Source: an uncultured Clostridia bacterium (GTDB lineage Bacteria; Bacillota; Clostridia; Christensenellales; QALW01). Taken from it: a stretch of DNA of 64,000 nt. The notes below the pieces were generated by a model. It saw only the letters and a program-made list of their open reading frames with translations. It made no database searches and had not been told where the DNA came from. Position 1 is the first letter of the stretch. Each line of letters begins with the position of its first letter. Position numbers and translations under genes: made by a program. Where the stretch lies: contig CAKRZX010000011.1 in the NCBI GenBank assembly GCA_934434555.1, positions 3,620 to 67,619 of the forward strand. The letters run 5' to 3'. Shown here piece by piece: positions 18,337 through 31,828 of this stretch.

Positions 18337-19089
18337 ATGAATACTTTTTTCAGGCGCAGGAAAACGTGGATAACGTCTGCACATCAGGGATTTGTAAAGG
18401 GAGAAATGCATTCAAACACTCTTGCGGCGTACGCTTTGGCGGCGCAAAAGGGCGCGGATATGATTGAAACGGACGCACGAATGACGTCGGACGGCGTAAT
18501 TATAGTCAATCACGACCCGATTGTCCGCGGGTTTGACGAAAACGGCGAAATAAAAGAATATGTTATTTCCGAAACCGACAGCGAAACAATAACAAAACTG
18601 CATTTAGTAAAAAACGGCGGGGAACACGACAGGGTTCCGACGCTTGAACAAACGCTTGATTTTGCATATAAAAACGGAATGTGCGTAAATATCGACCTTA
18701 AAGAGGGCATAAAAAACGCCGCGCGCGTTGCCGAACTTGTTATAAATTCGGGAATGCGGGGAAGAGTGGTTTATGCCACAAACGCGTCGGGAGCGGAAGC
18801 GATAAATCTTATCCTTTCCATAGACCCGGAAGCACGGTTTATTGACACGCCGCTGAATTTTACCCGTGAAAAATTGCAGTCGGTTCGGGATTATCCGTCG
18901 AAATGCTATGCCTATACGGGCGATTTCTCAGAGGAAAATATTTCAAGGATACGCAAAAGCGGCTGTATGCTGGCGGCGATATCGCTGAACGAATCAAATA
19001 TAAAAGCGGCGTTTGCGTTCCACCCGGATATGGCTGAATATCCCCACACAAGCGATTTTGAGGAAATAGAAAAATTGCTTGATTTATAA
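18337..19089 (+). CDS. Glycerophosphodiester phosphodiesterase (GDPD) family protein
   Basis: ..SAHQGF..NTLAAYALAAQKGADMIETDARMTSDGVIIVNHD.. matches the GDPD catalytic region (H..E.D..HD). Confidence 0.85.
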   Translation: MNTFFRRRKTWITSAHQGFVKGEMHSNTLAAYALAAQKGADMIETDARMTSDGVIIVNHDPIVRGFDENGEIKEYVISETDSETITKLHLVKNGGEHDRVPTLEQTLDFAYKNGMCVNIDLKEGIKNAARVAELVINSGMRGRVVYATNASGAEAINLILSIDPEARFIDTPLNFTREKLQSVRDYPSKCYAYTGDFSEENISRIRKSGCMLAAISLNESNIKAAFAFHPDMAEYPHTSDFEEIEKLLDL

Positions 19090-19167
19090 ATTTTAATCCA
19101 CTCTGTTCAGAATGGATTTTTTTGTAAAAGAATTGCGATAAAAATGTGAAAGGAAGAAAAATACCGT

Positions 19168-19196
19168 TTGCTTTTTTCGACACAATATGATATCAT
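19168..19196 (+). promoter_or_regulatory. Candidate promoter of the lipid operon
   Basis: TTGCTT (19168-19173), 17 nt ending in TGa, TATCAT (19191-19196), about 65 nt upstream of GTG 19261. Confidence 0.35.
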
Positions 19197-19260
19197 TATA
19201 AAGATGTTGTGCGCATGGAATCCGCGCAACTTTGACACTTGAAGATGAAGGAAAACCGAA

Positions 19261-29012: not shown

Positions 29013-29947
29013 TGGCAAAAATCATTCTTATTGCTCTTTCGGCGGTCGTTGTACTGTGCGTGCTGCCCACAATGCTTATTTCGCTTATAATTTTTAACGT
29101 TCTGCTTGTAAGGCAGAATAAAGAAAAGTGGTCAAGAGAATGCAGTTGGGATGACCCCGAACAGGAAGAAATGTTCCGTGTGGGTGCTGTTTGGGGCAAA
29201 GAAAACGGAGAATTTTGCAGTGAAGTTAGTATAGAAAGCGACGGATTCCGTTTAGTTGGCGAATACTTCGATTTCGGAAATAAAAAAGCGGTAATAATTA
29301 TTCCCGGCAGAATGGAATCGTGCATATATTCTTACTATTTTGCCGAGCCGTTTAAGAAAAGCGGATATAACGTGCTTGCCGTAGATAATCGTTCCCACGG
29401 CCTTTCGGAGGGCAAATTCAATACTTTGGGGTTGAGGGAATACAAAGATATAATTGCGTGGGCAAAATTTCTTAACAAGCAGTGCGGCATTGAAACAGTG
29501 TTCCTGCACGGCATATGTATCGGCTCGGCAACGGCACTGTATGCTTTAACAAGCGAAAACTGCCCCGAATGCATAAAGGGTATGTCTGCCGACGGAATGT
29601 ACGTGAACTTTATAGAAAGTTACAAGAATCATTTAATCGAGCGCAATAAGCCGCTGTTCCCGTTTTTAGCGGAGTTCAGGCTTTTGATTAAACTTGTTTC
29701 GGGCAAGGACCCTGTGAAATTTTCACCCATAAACCTTATGCCCAAACTTAAAAAGCCCATACTTTTTATTTATACAAAAAAGGACACTTATTCGGTGCCT
29801 GAAAAGGGGCAACTGCTTTTTGATACCTGTACCGCGCCGAAAAAACTTGTGTGGTTCGATAAAGGCATTCACTCTCACGTGAGAATAAACGCGGTTGAAA
29901 AATACGACAGCACAATCTGCGAATTTTTGAAAGAATACATACAATGA
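29009..29947 (+). CDS. Membrane-anchored alpha/beta hydrolase paralogue with Cys at the nucleophile position
   Basis: 312 aa with an N-terminal TM helix. ..FLHGICIGSATALYA.. aligns with ..ALYGISMGAATVGYV.. of ORF 24169, i.e. GxCxG instead of GxSxG. Confidence 0.7.
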   Translation: MMAKIILIALSAVVVLCVLPTMLISLIIFNVLLVRQNKEKWSRECSWDDPEQEEMFRVGAVWGKENGEFCSEVSIESDGFRLVGEYFDFGNKKAVIIIPGRMESCIYSYYFAEPFKKSGYNVLAVDNRSHGLSEGKFNTLGLREYKDIIAWAKFLNKQCGIETVFLHGICIGSATALYALTSENCPECIKGMSADGMYVNFIESYKNHLIERNKPLFPFLAEFRLLIKLVSGKDPVKFSPINLMPKLKKPILFIYTKKDTYSVPEKGQLLFDTCTAPKKLVWFDKGIHSHVRINAVEKYDSTICEFLKEYIQ

Positions 29948-30786
29948 CGGCATATGTGACTATGGACGCGGAGTCTTTTTTTGAAACGGAGTGTATGCAT
30001 AGTGCGGAATTTGATAAAAACCGCGCGTGCACCGAGGGGCTTGATGCGTTTCTTGACTTTCTTGATGGAAAAAATATAAAATCCACGCTGTTTGTTACCG
30101 AACAAATGCTTGATTTGTGCGCCGAACGGCTGAAAAGGGCGGCGGAAAACGGGCACGAAATCGCGGTGCATTCGTTAAAGCACAAACCGATAAACACTTA
30201 CGAAGAGTATTCTCTTGTGCTTTCGGCAATGAAAGAAAAGATTCTTAAAATTACCGGCATTGAACCTGTGGGTTACCGTGCGCCCTGCTTTTCCATAACA
30301 GATGAGGGATTGCGGGCGCTTAAAGACAACGGATTCTTATATGATTCAAGCGTGCTTGAAGTCAATAACACTTACGGTTCAAACAGAGTGTCGCTTGCGT
30401 CTTTTAGGAAAATAAACGACTCCGTTTGCGAAAAGGACGGTTTTTTTGAGGTAAAACCCGCCATTGCGAAAACGGCAAAGATTCCCGTGTCGGGCGGAGC
30501 ATATTTAAGGCTTTTTCCTTGGTGGTTTATGCGCCGTGTGCTTAAAAGGCATATAAAAAATGCGGATTCCTTTCTGTTTTACGTTCACCCTTTTGAACTT
30601 ACGGATAAAAATCTGACAAAGGGGTACAGGCTGAATATTACCGATTGGCTCTTTGTAAACAGGGGCAGAAAAAAATATTTTGAAAAGTTTGCCGAAACTA
30701 TTGATTTTCTCGAAAAAACAGGTTATAATTTTTATACGGTAAAAGATTATATTAAAAAAACAGGGGAGAGTGAGAACGACGGATAA
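29944..30786 (+). CDS. Polysaccharide deacetylase (CE4/NodB-like, DUF3473-type) family protein
   Basis: 280 aa; ..YVTMDAESFFE.. (compare the ..VDVEDYF.. motif), ..NGHEIAVHSLKH.., ..GYRAPCFSI... Confidence 0.7.
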   Translation: MTAYVTMDAESFFETECMHSAEFDKNRACTEGLDAFLDFLDGKNIKSTLFVTEQMLDLCAERLKRAAENGHEIAVHSLKHKPINTYEEYSLVLSAMKEKILKITGIEPVGYRAPCFSITDEGLRALKDNGFLYDSSVLEVNNTYGSNRVSLASFRKINDSVCEKDGFFEVKPAIAKTAKIPVSGGAYLRLFPWWFMRRVLKRHIKNADSFLFYVHPFELTDKNLTKGYRLNITDWLFVNRGRKKYFEKFAETIDFLEKTGYNFYTVKDYIKKTGESENDG

Positions 30787-31828
30787 GAAACGCATTAAGG
30801 CAATAGTTGCCGCCGCTGCGGTTTCGGGATTGAGCGTTGCTGCCGCAATGGGTGCCGCCGCGCTTTATGACGCCTGTTTTCCACGCTTTGAGCGCCCCGA
30901 TTATTCAATCACACCCGGGCTTTGCAATTACGAACTTGTAAAGGACGAACTCCCGAGAAGAGAAATTTCGTACCCGTCGGGCAAAGTGATACTTAAAGGC
31001 TATTACTATCAGGCTGAAAATTCAAAAGGGCTTGTGGTGCTTACCCACGGTCTGCACGCCGGGGCAGACGATTATCTTTCTGTCATACGGTACCTTGTAA
31101 GAAAAAACTATTCCGTTTTTGCCTATGACGGATGCGGAACATATTCTTCCGGCGGAAAATCCACGGTGGGTATGTGTCAGGCGCTTGTTGACCTGGATAA
31201 CACCCTTGCATATATTCAGGATTCCGATGAATTCAAAAATATGCCCTTGCTTTTACTGGGACATTCATGCGGGGGATATGCGGCAACATCGGTGCTTGCC
31301 TTAAAGGGCAATATACGCGCCTGTGCGGCTGTTGCACCGGTAAATGACTGCTATCATCTTATTGTTGACAAAGGGCGGCAGTATGCGGGCGAAATCGCCT
31401 CTGACGGGCTTCCTCACGTTTTCCTTGACGTGTATCAGAAGATTCTTTTCGGCAAATATACCGAATGTTCGGGCGTCAAGGGAATAAATTCAACCGATAT
31501 TCCCGTGCTTGTCGCTCACGGCAACAGGGATATGATAATATCGTTTTCGGGGCAGTCGGTTATTTCCCACAGGGTGGAAATAACGAATCCCAACACGGAG
31601 TATTATATCGGCACGGGCGCAGAATCGGGACACGAAACGATATTGTTTTCTTCCCGCGCGGTCGGATACAGAAAGCAGGTGGCGCGAGATGTAAAACGCC
31701 TCGGCAAAGAGCCTGCACACGAGCAGTTACAGGCTTTTTATGCGGGCGTCGATAACGAACTGTACAGCGAAATAAACGAAACGCTGTTTAGTGAAATAAC
31801 AGAACTTTTTGACCGTGCGGTCAAATAA
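30770..31828 (+). CDS. Membrane-anchored alpha/beta hydrolase (Ser nucleophile)
   Basis: 352 aa; N-terminal hydrophobic anchor, ..VVLTHGLHAG.., LLGHSCGGYAA (GxSxG), ..AHGNRD... GTG start, overlaps the upstream gene. Confidence 0.7.
   Translation: MRTTDKKRIKAIVAAAAVSGLSVAAAMGAAALYDACFPRFERPDYSITPGLCNYELVKDELPRREISYPSGKVILKGYYYQAENSKGLVVLTHGLHAGADDYLSVIRYLVRKNYSVFAYDGCGTYSSGGKSTVGMCQALVDLDNTLAYIQDSDEFKNMPLLLLGHSCGGYAATSVLALKGNIRACAAVAPVNDCYHLIVDKGRQYAGEIASDGLPHVFLDVYQKILFGKYTECSGVKGINSTDIPVLVAHGNRDMIISFSGQSVISHRVEITNPNTEYYIGTGAESGHETILFSSRAVGYRKQVARDVKRLGKEPAHEQLQAFYAGVDNELYSEINETLFSEITELFDRAVK

Follow-up and report, generated by a model that had tools for sequence, protein, structure and literature searches.

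A conserved gene cluster of gut and rumen Clostridia that joins a FakB/FakA-like pair to a ligase, carrier, and acyltransferase module, with a possible role in acyl-chain salvage and membrane-lipid acylation

A 64,000-nucleotide (nt) stretch of DNA from an uncultured Clostridia bacterium (GenBank assembly GCA_934434555.1, contig CAKRZX010000011.1, positions 3,620 to 67,619 of the forward strand; hereafter, the window) raises the question of why two acyl-activating ligases, two carriers, two PlsC-type acyltransferases, a FakB/FakA-like pair, a permease, three alpha/beta-hydrolase-fold proteins, and a CE4 deacetylase should be encoded side by side in one plus-strand block (genes A to L). A first-pass annotation, made from the sequence alone, saw in them a complete module for scavenging and remodeling lipids of the host or diet. 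The order A-B-C-D-E-(X)-F-G-(H)-I-J, in which X is a gene of relatives that is absent from the window, recurs at 40 to 65% amino acid (aa) identity in ∼80 species genomes, ∼50 metagenome contigs, and one Bacilli metagenome-assembled genome (MAG). The cluster comprises 10 to 14 genes, and all of its hosts are gut or rumen anaerobes. Its components all come from known superfamilies and their logic (Fak; LplT/Aas-like) is known; what appears to be new, as far as the literature searched shows, is the combination, the Cys-type partner of FakA, and the gene X, in which an LRAT domain is often fused to a 4′-phosphopantetheinyl transferase (PPTase). We tentatively read this conserved operon as one for fatty-acid activation, acyl-chain salvage, and membrane-lipid (re)acylation or remodeling.

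A conserved gene order and its two modules

Relatives of A are present in at least 505 species genomes, and the best 120 matches to A are all full-length homologs with ∼48% identity, members of a large and unnamed family. The species set consists of the 80 best loci from a one-genome-per-species scan with A, searched by tblastn with the proteins of the window; loci were examined with 10-kb flanks. All 80 are from gut or rumen Clostridia (Oscillospiraceae, Ruminococcus, Lachnospiraceae, Christensenellaceae, and Butyrivibrio), with one isolate among them, Ruminococcaceae bacterium P7 (locus L054), and the identical cluster is found on 12 human-gut metagenome contigs. Counting only loci whose contig is long enough, B is present behind A in 75 of 75 species loci (median identity 57%) and C in 74 of 74 (49%), followed by D in 64/68 (60%), E in 63/68 (46%), F in 59/61 (34%), G in 57/59 (50%), I in 54/56 (46%), and J in 53/55 (50%); the permease gene H is present in 33/56 (61%). 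In a second, independent sample, of metagenome contigs centered on J, FakA is directly upstream of J in 49 of 50, with DegV present in 40 of 42 and MFS_2 in 30 of 42, and the contigs with at least 9 kb of upstream sequence have B (24/27), C (26/27), D (24/27), E (24/27), and F (23/27). The Bacilli MAG, of Erysipelotrichaceae type, has the same order with the CE4 gene included. The flanks upstream of the cluster are not conserved, and the interior order is kept. Because the order is conserved across ∼130 independent loci, the arrangement is beyond chance; conservation of the gene neighborhood had been set beforehand as a test of the proposed module, and the cluster proves not to be strain specific.

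In the window, thirteen open reading frames (ORFs), from a glycerophosphodiester phosphodiesterase (GDPD) gene through L, map to the plus strand at the coordinates and with the junctions previously given for them, and every domain call is confirmed by Pfam above gathering thresholds (GDPD and A to L). The series 19261-31828 is unbroken, with junctions that overlap by 1 to 17 nt or leave gaps of 16 nt or fewer: A/B (21168/21171) overlaps by 4 nt, B/C (21778/21788) by 11 nt, E/F (at 24169) by 1 nt, and K/L (30770/30786) by 17 nt, and the F/G (25110/25112), I/J (29009/29012), and J/K (29944/29947) junctions are likewise reproduced. Alternative gene callers place the start of D at ATG 22406, for a product of 500 aa, and that of J at ATG 29012, for one of 311 aa. 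The operon is probably co-transcribed.

The operon is composed of two separable modules that have been joined, since minimal DegV-FakA-J loci and Fak-less A-H-B-C-D-X loci both exist. One module is a core of Fak plus the Cys-type hydrolase, and the other combines ligase, carrier, acyltransferase, and LRAT genes and moves together with the MFS permease. Locus L116 has DegV-FakA-J alone, between suf/flavodoxin genes, and L129 and L133 have ligA-gatA-gatB-epimerase and then PlsC-like-DegV-FakA-J-CE4, the PlsC-like gene that precedes DegV in these minimal loci being the C-like one. Butyrivibrio MAGs have A-(MFS_2)-B-C-D-(E)-X, without F, G, I, and J. Accessory genes (H, K, L, X, and a zinc-ribbon gene) are gained or lost at fixed positions inside the block or at its ends.

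Some individual loci depart from these layouts. The Fak-less variant is found in the Butyrivibrio MAGs L066 and L042, and the MFS_2 gene of L066 (9915-11783) codes for a 622-aa protein with extra C-terminal transmembrane (TM) helices. Loci L009, L026, L058, and L063 are without D, and E is kept in all of these except L063, which is without both; the D-less loci that keep E suggest either a dispensable D or action of A on E in trans. In some metagenome copies two ORFs take the place of a single DegV, CE4, or first-hydrolase gene (L002, 7236-8127 and 12048-12681; L090, 5067-6016), which could be pseudogenization frameshifts or assembly errors.

The Fak core, the acyl-transfer module, and their accessory proteins

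Gene G (25112-26041) codes for a DegV/FakB-like fatty-acid-binding protein (DegV PF02645, 188 bits) that passes the family cut-off of TIGR00762 (203 versus 99.7 bits), has full-length matches in the PDB to DegV and FakB1, and aligns to FakB1 structures over residues 3 to 291. Gene I (27393-29012) codes for a FakA of the YloV type with Dak2, FakA-like_M, and FakA-like_C domains and a DGDTG motif, scoring 494.7 bits on TIGR03599 (YloV/FakA) against a cut-off of 396.1. Its 382 bits on NF038248, the equivalog model for S. aureus-type FakA, are below the cut-off of 975, which for so narrow a model indicates divergence and not exclusion from the family. By family membership the Fak half is bona fide, as had been proposed. 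The FakAs of minimal loci share a median of 43 to 46% identity with those of full clusters, about as much as full-cluster FakAs share among themselves, and the FakA of the window stands at 46%; the pattern is suggestive of one orthologous FakA to which the other genes were added and is weak evidence that I would be the ordinary FakA of its lineage and not a specialized paralog.

The neighbor of FakA, J (29012-29947; ORF from 29009; Hydrolase_4, 50 bits), is predicted to be translationally coupled to fakA and appears to be a near-obligate partner of it. J has an alpha/beta-hydrolase fold in which a GXSXG motif is lacking and the nucleophile sits in an elbow of sequence G-I-C-I-G (in homologs, G-[IV]-C-[IV]-G); Cys170, Asp259, and His288 are invariant in 33 homologs and are sited after beta5, beta7, and beta8 of an AlphaFold2 (AF2) model (pLDDT 89), in which the alpha/beta fold lies behind a 32-residue N-terminal helix. 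Of the 52 best J representatives (clustered at 50% identity) from a profile search against 1.84 billion cluster representatives, 48 have the Cys nucleophile, and the Ser-type matches ranking below the J family are F-like paralogs. The closest folds are the esterase PF2001 and monoacylglycerol lipases, not PhaC; what J shares with PhaC-like or Cys-thioesterase-like enzymes is a chemical feature (G-x-C-x-G, Asp, and His), not family membership. The Cys nucleophile suggests acyl transfer over plain hydrolysis.

F (24169-25110; Hydrolase_4, 63 bits) and L (30770-31828; Hydrolase_4, 63 bits) are Ser-type, with nucleophile elbows GISMG (G-x-S-M-G conserved) and GHSCG, respectively, and each, like J, has one N-terminal hydrophobic helix. 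Sidedness was assigned by the positive-inside rule. Around the helix of J the median number of Lys/Arg residues is 0 before and 5 after (117 sequences), and around that of F it is 0 before and 4 after, the C-terminal side being richer in 85 of 92 homologs; L has a median of 6 in the N-terminal flank versus 3 in the C-terminal flank, and the N-terminal side is richer in 43 of 47 homologs. The catalytic domains of F and J are thus predicted to be cytoplasmic, and that of L alone exofacial. L is signal anchored and lipase-like, with PDB matches to the PF2001 esterase and monoglyceride lipases, and L-like genes are found no more than 3 kb from J in 27 of 44 loci and upstream of A in others. The first-pass annotation had taken all three proteins for (lyso)phospholipases acting on exogenous lipid; that remains plausible for L, whereas F and J, of which J is a Cys enzyme, could not attack external lipid because their catalytic domains are predicted to be cytoplasmic.

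The other module opens with A (19261-21171), in which a highly divergent adenylate-forming ligase (AMP-binding, 129 bits) is joined to a PCP-type carrier (PP-binding, 34 bits) whose attachment residue is Ser596 in GGTSL; 25 homologs show no variation at Ser596, at K533, or in the core ANL motifs. Its AF2 model (pLDDT 83.5) is closest to the A-PCP didomains McyG, CAR, and SrfA-C, plus MenE and MatB, and its closest PDB sequence match is MenE (3e-11). An 809-aa homolog of A (P0111) was considered as an A-B fusion and rejected, the N-terminus having been mis-called. D (22406-23908; the ORF opens with TTG at 22370; AMP-binding, 219 bits) is a stand-alone ANL ligase whose closest PDB structures, at ∼1e-33, are feruloyl-CoA synthetase, MenE, and oxalyl- and malonyl-CoA ligases. 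E (23921-24169; PP-binding, 28 bits) is a free acyl carrier protein (ACP) with its phosphopantetheine serine, Ser43, in GFDSV; its matches to ACP models of NCBIfam are below their cut-offs.

B (21168-21788; PF01553, 70 bits) and C (21778-22389; PF01553, 87 bits) are PlsC-type acyltransferases of the size of ordinary PlsC, with the HX4D motifs HTSVYD and HVGFFD conserved in homologs. Both align to the N-terminal domain of Escherichia coli Aas, B with 23% identity (E 8e-6) and C with 29% (E 2e-8), over ∼120 to 145 residues that include HX4D and FPEG; this is homology at the domain level only, and on the Aas-type equivalog models the two score 21 to 70 bits versus cut-offs of 886 to 1349. C also matches the PlsC structure of Thermotoga maritima, 5kym, in the PDB.

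Most relatives code for X between the ACP gene and F (63 species loci and 20 of 27 metagenome loci). The N-terminal 130 residues of X are an LRAT/PLAAT domain (PF04970, 59 to 64 bits) with an H-box and the catalytic Cys in NCEHF, matching HRASLS2 (PLAAT2), PLAAT3, and PLAAT4 structures across the whole domain, and about half of the X genes bear a C-terminal Sfp-type PPTase (ACPS, 36 bits). X thus resembles the eukaryotic PLAAT/HRASLS/LRAT proteins in its LRAT domain, H-box, NCEHF Cys, and structural matches, but it is bacterial, is without the C-terminal membrane anchor, is often fused to a PPTase, and directly follows an ACP gene. A tblastn search of the window gave no match to X, and the E and F genes meet at 24169; X is also missing in a 90%-identical relative and a few other lineages, and was probably lost in the lineage of the window.

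Two further proteins are facultative. H (26053-27390; MFS_2 PF13347, 97 bits) is a 12-TM permease present in ∼60 to 70% of loci, and in the Butyrivibrio MAG L066 its gene sits between A and B. The H sequence has no matches in the PDB, and on TIGR00792 (gph) it scores 46 versus 231 bits. K (29944-30786; PF01522 Polysacc_deac_1, 55 bits; PF11959 DUF3473, 49 bits) has an HSLKH motif and no TM segment, and its top NCBIfam match is TIGR03006. A K-type CE4 gene directly follows J in 9 of 52 loci, and L102 and L104 repeat the order J-K-L-M, M being a zinc-ribbon gene described below. K is a cytoplasmic CE4 enzyme and an occasional accessory; the deacetylase counted as part of the system by the first-pass annotation is present, but not as a constant member.

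A tentative function and its alternatives

What the sequences show is gene content, domain families, catalytic motifs, conserved order, modularity, and predicted topology; all substrates, the direction in which each acyl group moves, a single transcript, and a tie to lipid from outside the cell, not from within it, are inferences. Under the reading we favor, free carboxylic acids, of which long-chain fatty acids are the likeliest, would be activated and then installed on membrane-lipid acceptors. L would free fatty acids from external lipid, and others would arrive from the diet or host. In the Fak core (module 2), G would bind a fatty acid and I would phosphorylate it to an acyl-phosphate; J, at the cytoplasmic face, might release inner-leaflet acyl chains for Fak or might take an activated acyl group as a thioester and pass it on, and F, its Ser paralog at the same face, could deacylate or transacylate inner-leaflet lipids. 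In module 1, A would adenylate an acid and load its own PCP, and D would load the free ACP E, with priming of both carriers by the PPTase half of X in loci that have it. B and C would move carrier-bound acyl groups to lysolipid or glycerol-phosphate-type acceptors, and X, as an LRAT/PLAAT-like Cys acyltransferase, would provide a further transacylation step in most relatives. H may import or flip a lipid-derived substrate, and K and the neighboring GDPD would be lineage-level add-ons for head-group processing.

A more specific proposal, which we consider unlikely, is that J is an acyl-phosphate-dependent acyltransferase: Cys170 would be acylated by the FakB/FakA acyl-phosphate, in thioester chemistry that would be PlsX-like or GAPDH-like, and the chain would be passed to a membrane lipid at the cytoplasmic face. 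If so, exogenous fatty acid would reach lipid without PlsX or PlsY, a new outlet of the Fak pathway, and the ligase/carrier/PlsC/LRAT module would supply further acylations. The pairing of FakA and J may in this way reveal a new fate of acyl-phosphate.

These proposals can be set beside two known systems. The FakA/FakB systems of Firmicutes (Staphylococcus aureus, streptococci, and Enterococcus faecalis) make acyl-phosphate ATP-dependently from FakB-bound fatty acid, and their fakA and fakB genes are usually unlinked and feed PlsY and PlsX. G, in the DegV/FakB family, and I, with its full FakA domain set, presumably also make acyl-phosphate from free fatty acid, but here fakA and degV are embedded in a 10- to 14-gene operon. 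To our knowledge, a Cys-nucleophile alpha/beta-fold partner of FakA has no counterpart in described Fak systems, and none was found in the literature searched. The second system, LplT-Aas of E. coli, transports and re-acylates lysophospholipids and likewise combines an MFS permease, an adenylate-forming source of acyl-carrier thioesters, and a PlsC-type acyltransferase; the placement of the MFS gene between A and the acyltransferase genes in Butyrivibrio MAGs echoes lplT-aas. The differences are that A has its own PCP domain in place of the use of AcpP, and that the activities are on separate genes and doubled (two ligases, two carriers, and two acyltransferases). A was tried as an Aas-type synthetase and rejected (BLASTP against Aas, E 0.12), and the PRK08043 and PRK08633 models are matched by B and C only and are not among the listed matches of A or D.

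Several observations weigh against the salvage and (re)acylation reading. Neither ligase is closer to characterized fatty-acid ligases than to MenE, MatB, feruloyl-CoA synthetase, and NRPS (non-ribosomal peptide synthetase) A domains, and the FadD-like identity previously given to D, like the use of fatty acids by either ligase, is not supported by their closest structures, which include the NRPS A-PCP didomains. B (63.7 bits) and C (77.1 bits) fall below the PlsC cut-off of TIGR00530 (102.95). Assignment of H to the LplT family was rejected, a profile of 26 H homologs giving an hhalign probability of 0.8% against E. coli LplT, with which H shares the MFS fold and nothing more specific, and the family profile has marginal PDB matches to the lysolipid symporter MFSD2A-B (E 0.002, residues 62-191) and the plant sucrose carrier SUC1 (E 0.003); the likeness to LplT/Aas in the first-pass annotation therefore holds for the logic and the Aas-domain alignment of B and C, but not for family kinship of H or A. 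A promoter and terminator consensus scan of 17200-33000 gave counts like those of shuffled sequence (27 versus 26.6 and 29 versus 22) and is therefore uninformative on the boundaries of the operon. Simple salvage has no evident need for three activation routes in a single operon, and specialized-metabolite pathways are typically marked by an A-PCP architecture and a dedicated Sfp-type PPTase.

It is accordingly possible, if rather doubtful, that the operon makes a specialized acylated lipid or lipo-metabolite (an acylated glycolipid, aminolipid, or signaling lipid), with A-PCP and D/ACP loading specific acids, the PlsC-type, LRAT-like, and Cys-hydrolase enzymes assembling them on a scaffold, the CE4 enzyme tailoring a sugar head group, the MFS protein exporting the product, and Fak supplying one acyl chain. 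Consistent with this are the NRPS-like didomain of A, which folds like McyG, CAR, and SrfA-C and a homolog of which NCBI labels "non-ribosomal peptide synthetase"; the Sfp-type PPTase within the cluster in most relatives; the kinship of the ligases to small- or aryl-acid ligases; and the recurrence of a cytoplasmic CE4 gene after J. However, no condensation, KS, TE/TD, or glycosyltransferase gene is present in ∼130 loci, the bare DegV-FakA-J core lies beside housekeeping genes, a near-constant composition over at least 505 species is unusual for specialized metabolism, and the PPTase half of X is often missing, X itself being absent from the window. Aryl-polyene and xanthomonadin-type lipid-anchoring genes code for a ligase, an ACP, and two PlsC-like acyltransferases, so that an adenylating enzyme, a carrier, and paired lysophospholipid-acyltransferase-like genes are common to both, but the present cluster has no KS, KR, DH, MMPL, or LolA-like genes, its hosts are Gram positive, and Fak is present. 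A check for secondary-metabolite homology, suggested in advance, found no close homolog among solved structures or in NCBIfam, their secondary-metabolite entries included, although these libraries are not dedicated to such pathways, and no condensation domain. A further point in favor of a specialized product is that gut Clostridia make fatty acid amides through A plus ACP systems, of which an A enzyme, an ACP, and a free-standing C domain are the defining parts (OaaA/OaaACP/OaaC; PMC13310621). There, too, a stand-alone adenylating enzyme loads an acid, probably an exogenous fatty acid, on a small carrier (PMC13310621), but here PlsC-type, LRAT-like, and alpha/beta-fold enzymes stand in for the condensation domain. 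Membership in that pathway was rejected, there being no Condensation domain in the cluster or its annotated relatives.

Two other explanations seem more remote. The genes may not form one pathway at all, the locus being a housekeeping fakB-fakA pair, perhaps with plsC, next to unrelated ligase, carrier, and hydrolase genes whose synteny is inherited among related Clostridia. The typical YloV character of FakA, minimal loci that set DegV-FakA-J beside ligA-gatAB or suf genes, the appearance of minimal- and full-locus FakAs as one orthologous group, and the ordinary PlsC size of B and C all fit such a history, which we nonetheless judge improbable: the flanks are not conserved, yet the interior order is kept at only 40 to 60% identity, and in a Bacilli/Erysipelotrichaceae-type MAG as well; stop and start codons overlap throughout the block; accessory genes come and go at fixed positions inside it or at its ends; and the MFS gene accompanies module 1 also in loci that have no Fak. 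Least probable, and in our view very improbable, is a carrier-dependent acylation of a cell-envelope polymer, like Dlt or the exosortase-A-associated cassette of ligase, ACP, two hydrolases, and CE4, with the anchored hydrolase-fold proteins acting as transferases. The logic of a ligase, a small carrier, and a membrane-anchored hydrolase-fold protein fits, K is closest to TIGR03006 of the XrtA system, and J weakly resembles hydr1_PEP/hydr2_PEP and D ligase_PEP_1, but these matches are far below their cut-offs (TIGR03006, 109 versus 276 bits; TIGR03100, 20 versus 168; TIGR03101, 20 versus 203; TIGR03098, 133 versus 592), and kinship to the XrtA-associated cassette was rejected. Moreover, the cluster and its immediate surroundings are without MBOAT, exosortase, or polysaccharide-synthesis genes, a cytoplasmic orientation is predicted for F and J, and DegV/FakA and the PlsC-type enzymes point to lipids.

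The salvage and (re)acylation reading thus retains its logic in a narrower form than the complete scavenging module first envisaged, which is plausible as a scheme, but in the window the LRAT/PPTase gene of relatives is missing, GDPD is not in the unit, and F and J are predicted to face inward. No account of this set of genes, of an alpha/beta hydrolase linked to FakA, or of LRAT domains fused to a PPTase in bacteria was found in the open-access literature or bioRxiv, although subscription journals may hold one, and the view that this is not a described unit stands to that extent; nothing relevant on fatty-acid auxotrophy in the host taxa was found in the same sources. Among the anaerobes that dominate gut and rumen are the Oscillospiraceae, the Ruminococcaceae, and related taxa, whose lipid metabolism has hardly been studied. 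The operon could explain how lipids of diet and host are taken up and detoxified by these bacteria and made into membranes, and why interventions that target the type II synthesis of fatty acids (FASII) or are based on fatty acids shift these taxa, and it could bear on whether they alter host lipid or lysolipid pools. As the cluster is present in the isolate Ruminococcaceae bacterium P7, and its parts are mostly small soluble or single-pass proteins, the finding is directly testable.

Boundaries of the block and other features of the window

The GDPD gene (18337-19089; 250 aa) upstream of A had been included in the proposed system, and this is not borne out. Its PF03009 match (65 bits) covers profile positions 5 to 108 only, the protein has no predicted TM segment, and the gene is confined to near-identical contigs and one 90%-identical relative, with tblastn finding it in 0 of 80 species loci. 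The 171-nt spacer between GDPD and A contains a terminator-like plus-strand hairpin (AATCCA...TGGATT, 19095-19118) followed by a run of seven T residues, together spanning 19095-19123; it is seen in the sequence and in both the minimum-free-energy and centroid folds, its stem being too AT-rich for the consensus scan, and the spacer as a whole folds no more stably than shuffles (z = -0.6). GDPD is probably a lineage-specific neighbor outside the operon. An imperfect inverted repeat (GTTGTGCGC...GCGCAAC) at 19218-19243 is situated just upstream of the ribosome-binding site of A and is no more stable than shuffled controls, and an Rfam scan of 17000-33000 returned no matches.

At its other end, the same-strand block extends past L by two genes, M and N, to 32707, with gaps of 0 to 18 nt, and there faces a convergent uvrC. 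M (31847-32293, or from 31829) has weak DZR_2 and DUF4190 matches and two to three TM segments, and N (32312-32707; Zn_Ribbon_1, 34 bits; DUF4190, 29 bits), the last gene before uvrC, is its tandem paralog, both being zinc-ribbon/DUF4190 membrane proteins encoded on the plus strand. In 21 of 40 loci an ORF that combines a zinc ribbon with TM segments follows J on the same strand, at most 3.5 kb downstream, and the Bacilli MAG L090 has three to four small zinc-ribbon genes in a row at the M/N position.

Elsewhere in the window, positions 1-9200 have a GC content of 0.36 to 0.39, versus ∼0.44 elsewhere, and contain same-strand ORFs of 176 to 396 aa with no Pfam match at E ≤ 1e-5; this is possibly a mobile or phage-derived island. 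Upstream of the cluster are tandem metallo-beta-lactamase-fold genes (15630-16421 and 16433-17242) that score 22 and 18 bits on Apyc1 (anti-Pycsar), versus a cut-off of 50. A second, unrelated Polysacc_deac_1 (CE4) gene (35148-35894, plus strand) is found on the far side of uvrC and a helix-turn-helix gene, 2.4 kb from the end of the operon. On the minus strand, 43206-44999 codes for a large protein with a DUF7507/CLIPPER_2 repeat, followed by two ORFs of ∼290 to 350 aa without a Pfam match, and beyond this region are AraC-type regulators and GH43 and isomerase sugar genes.

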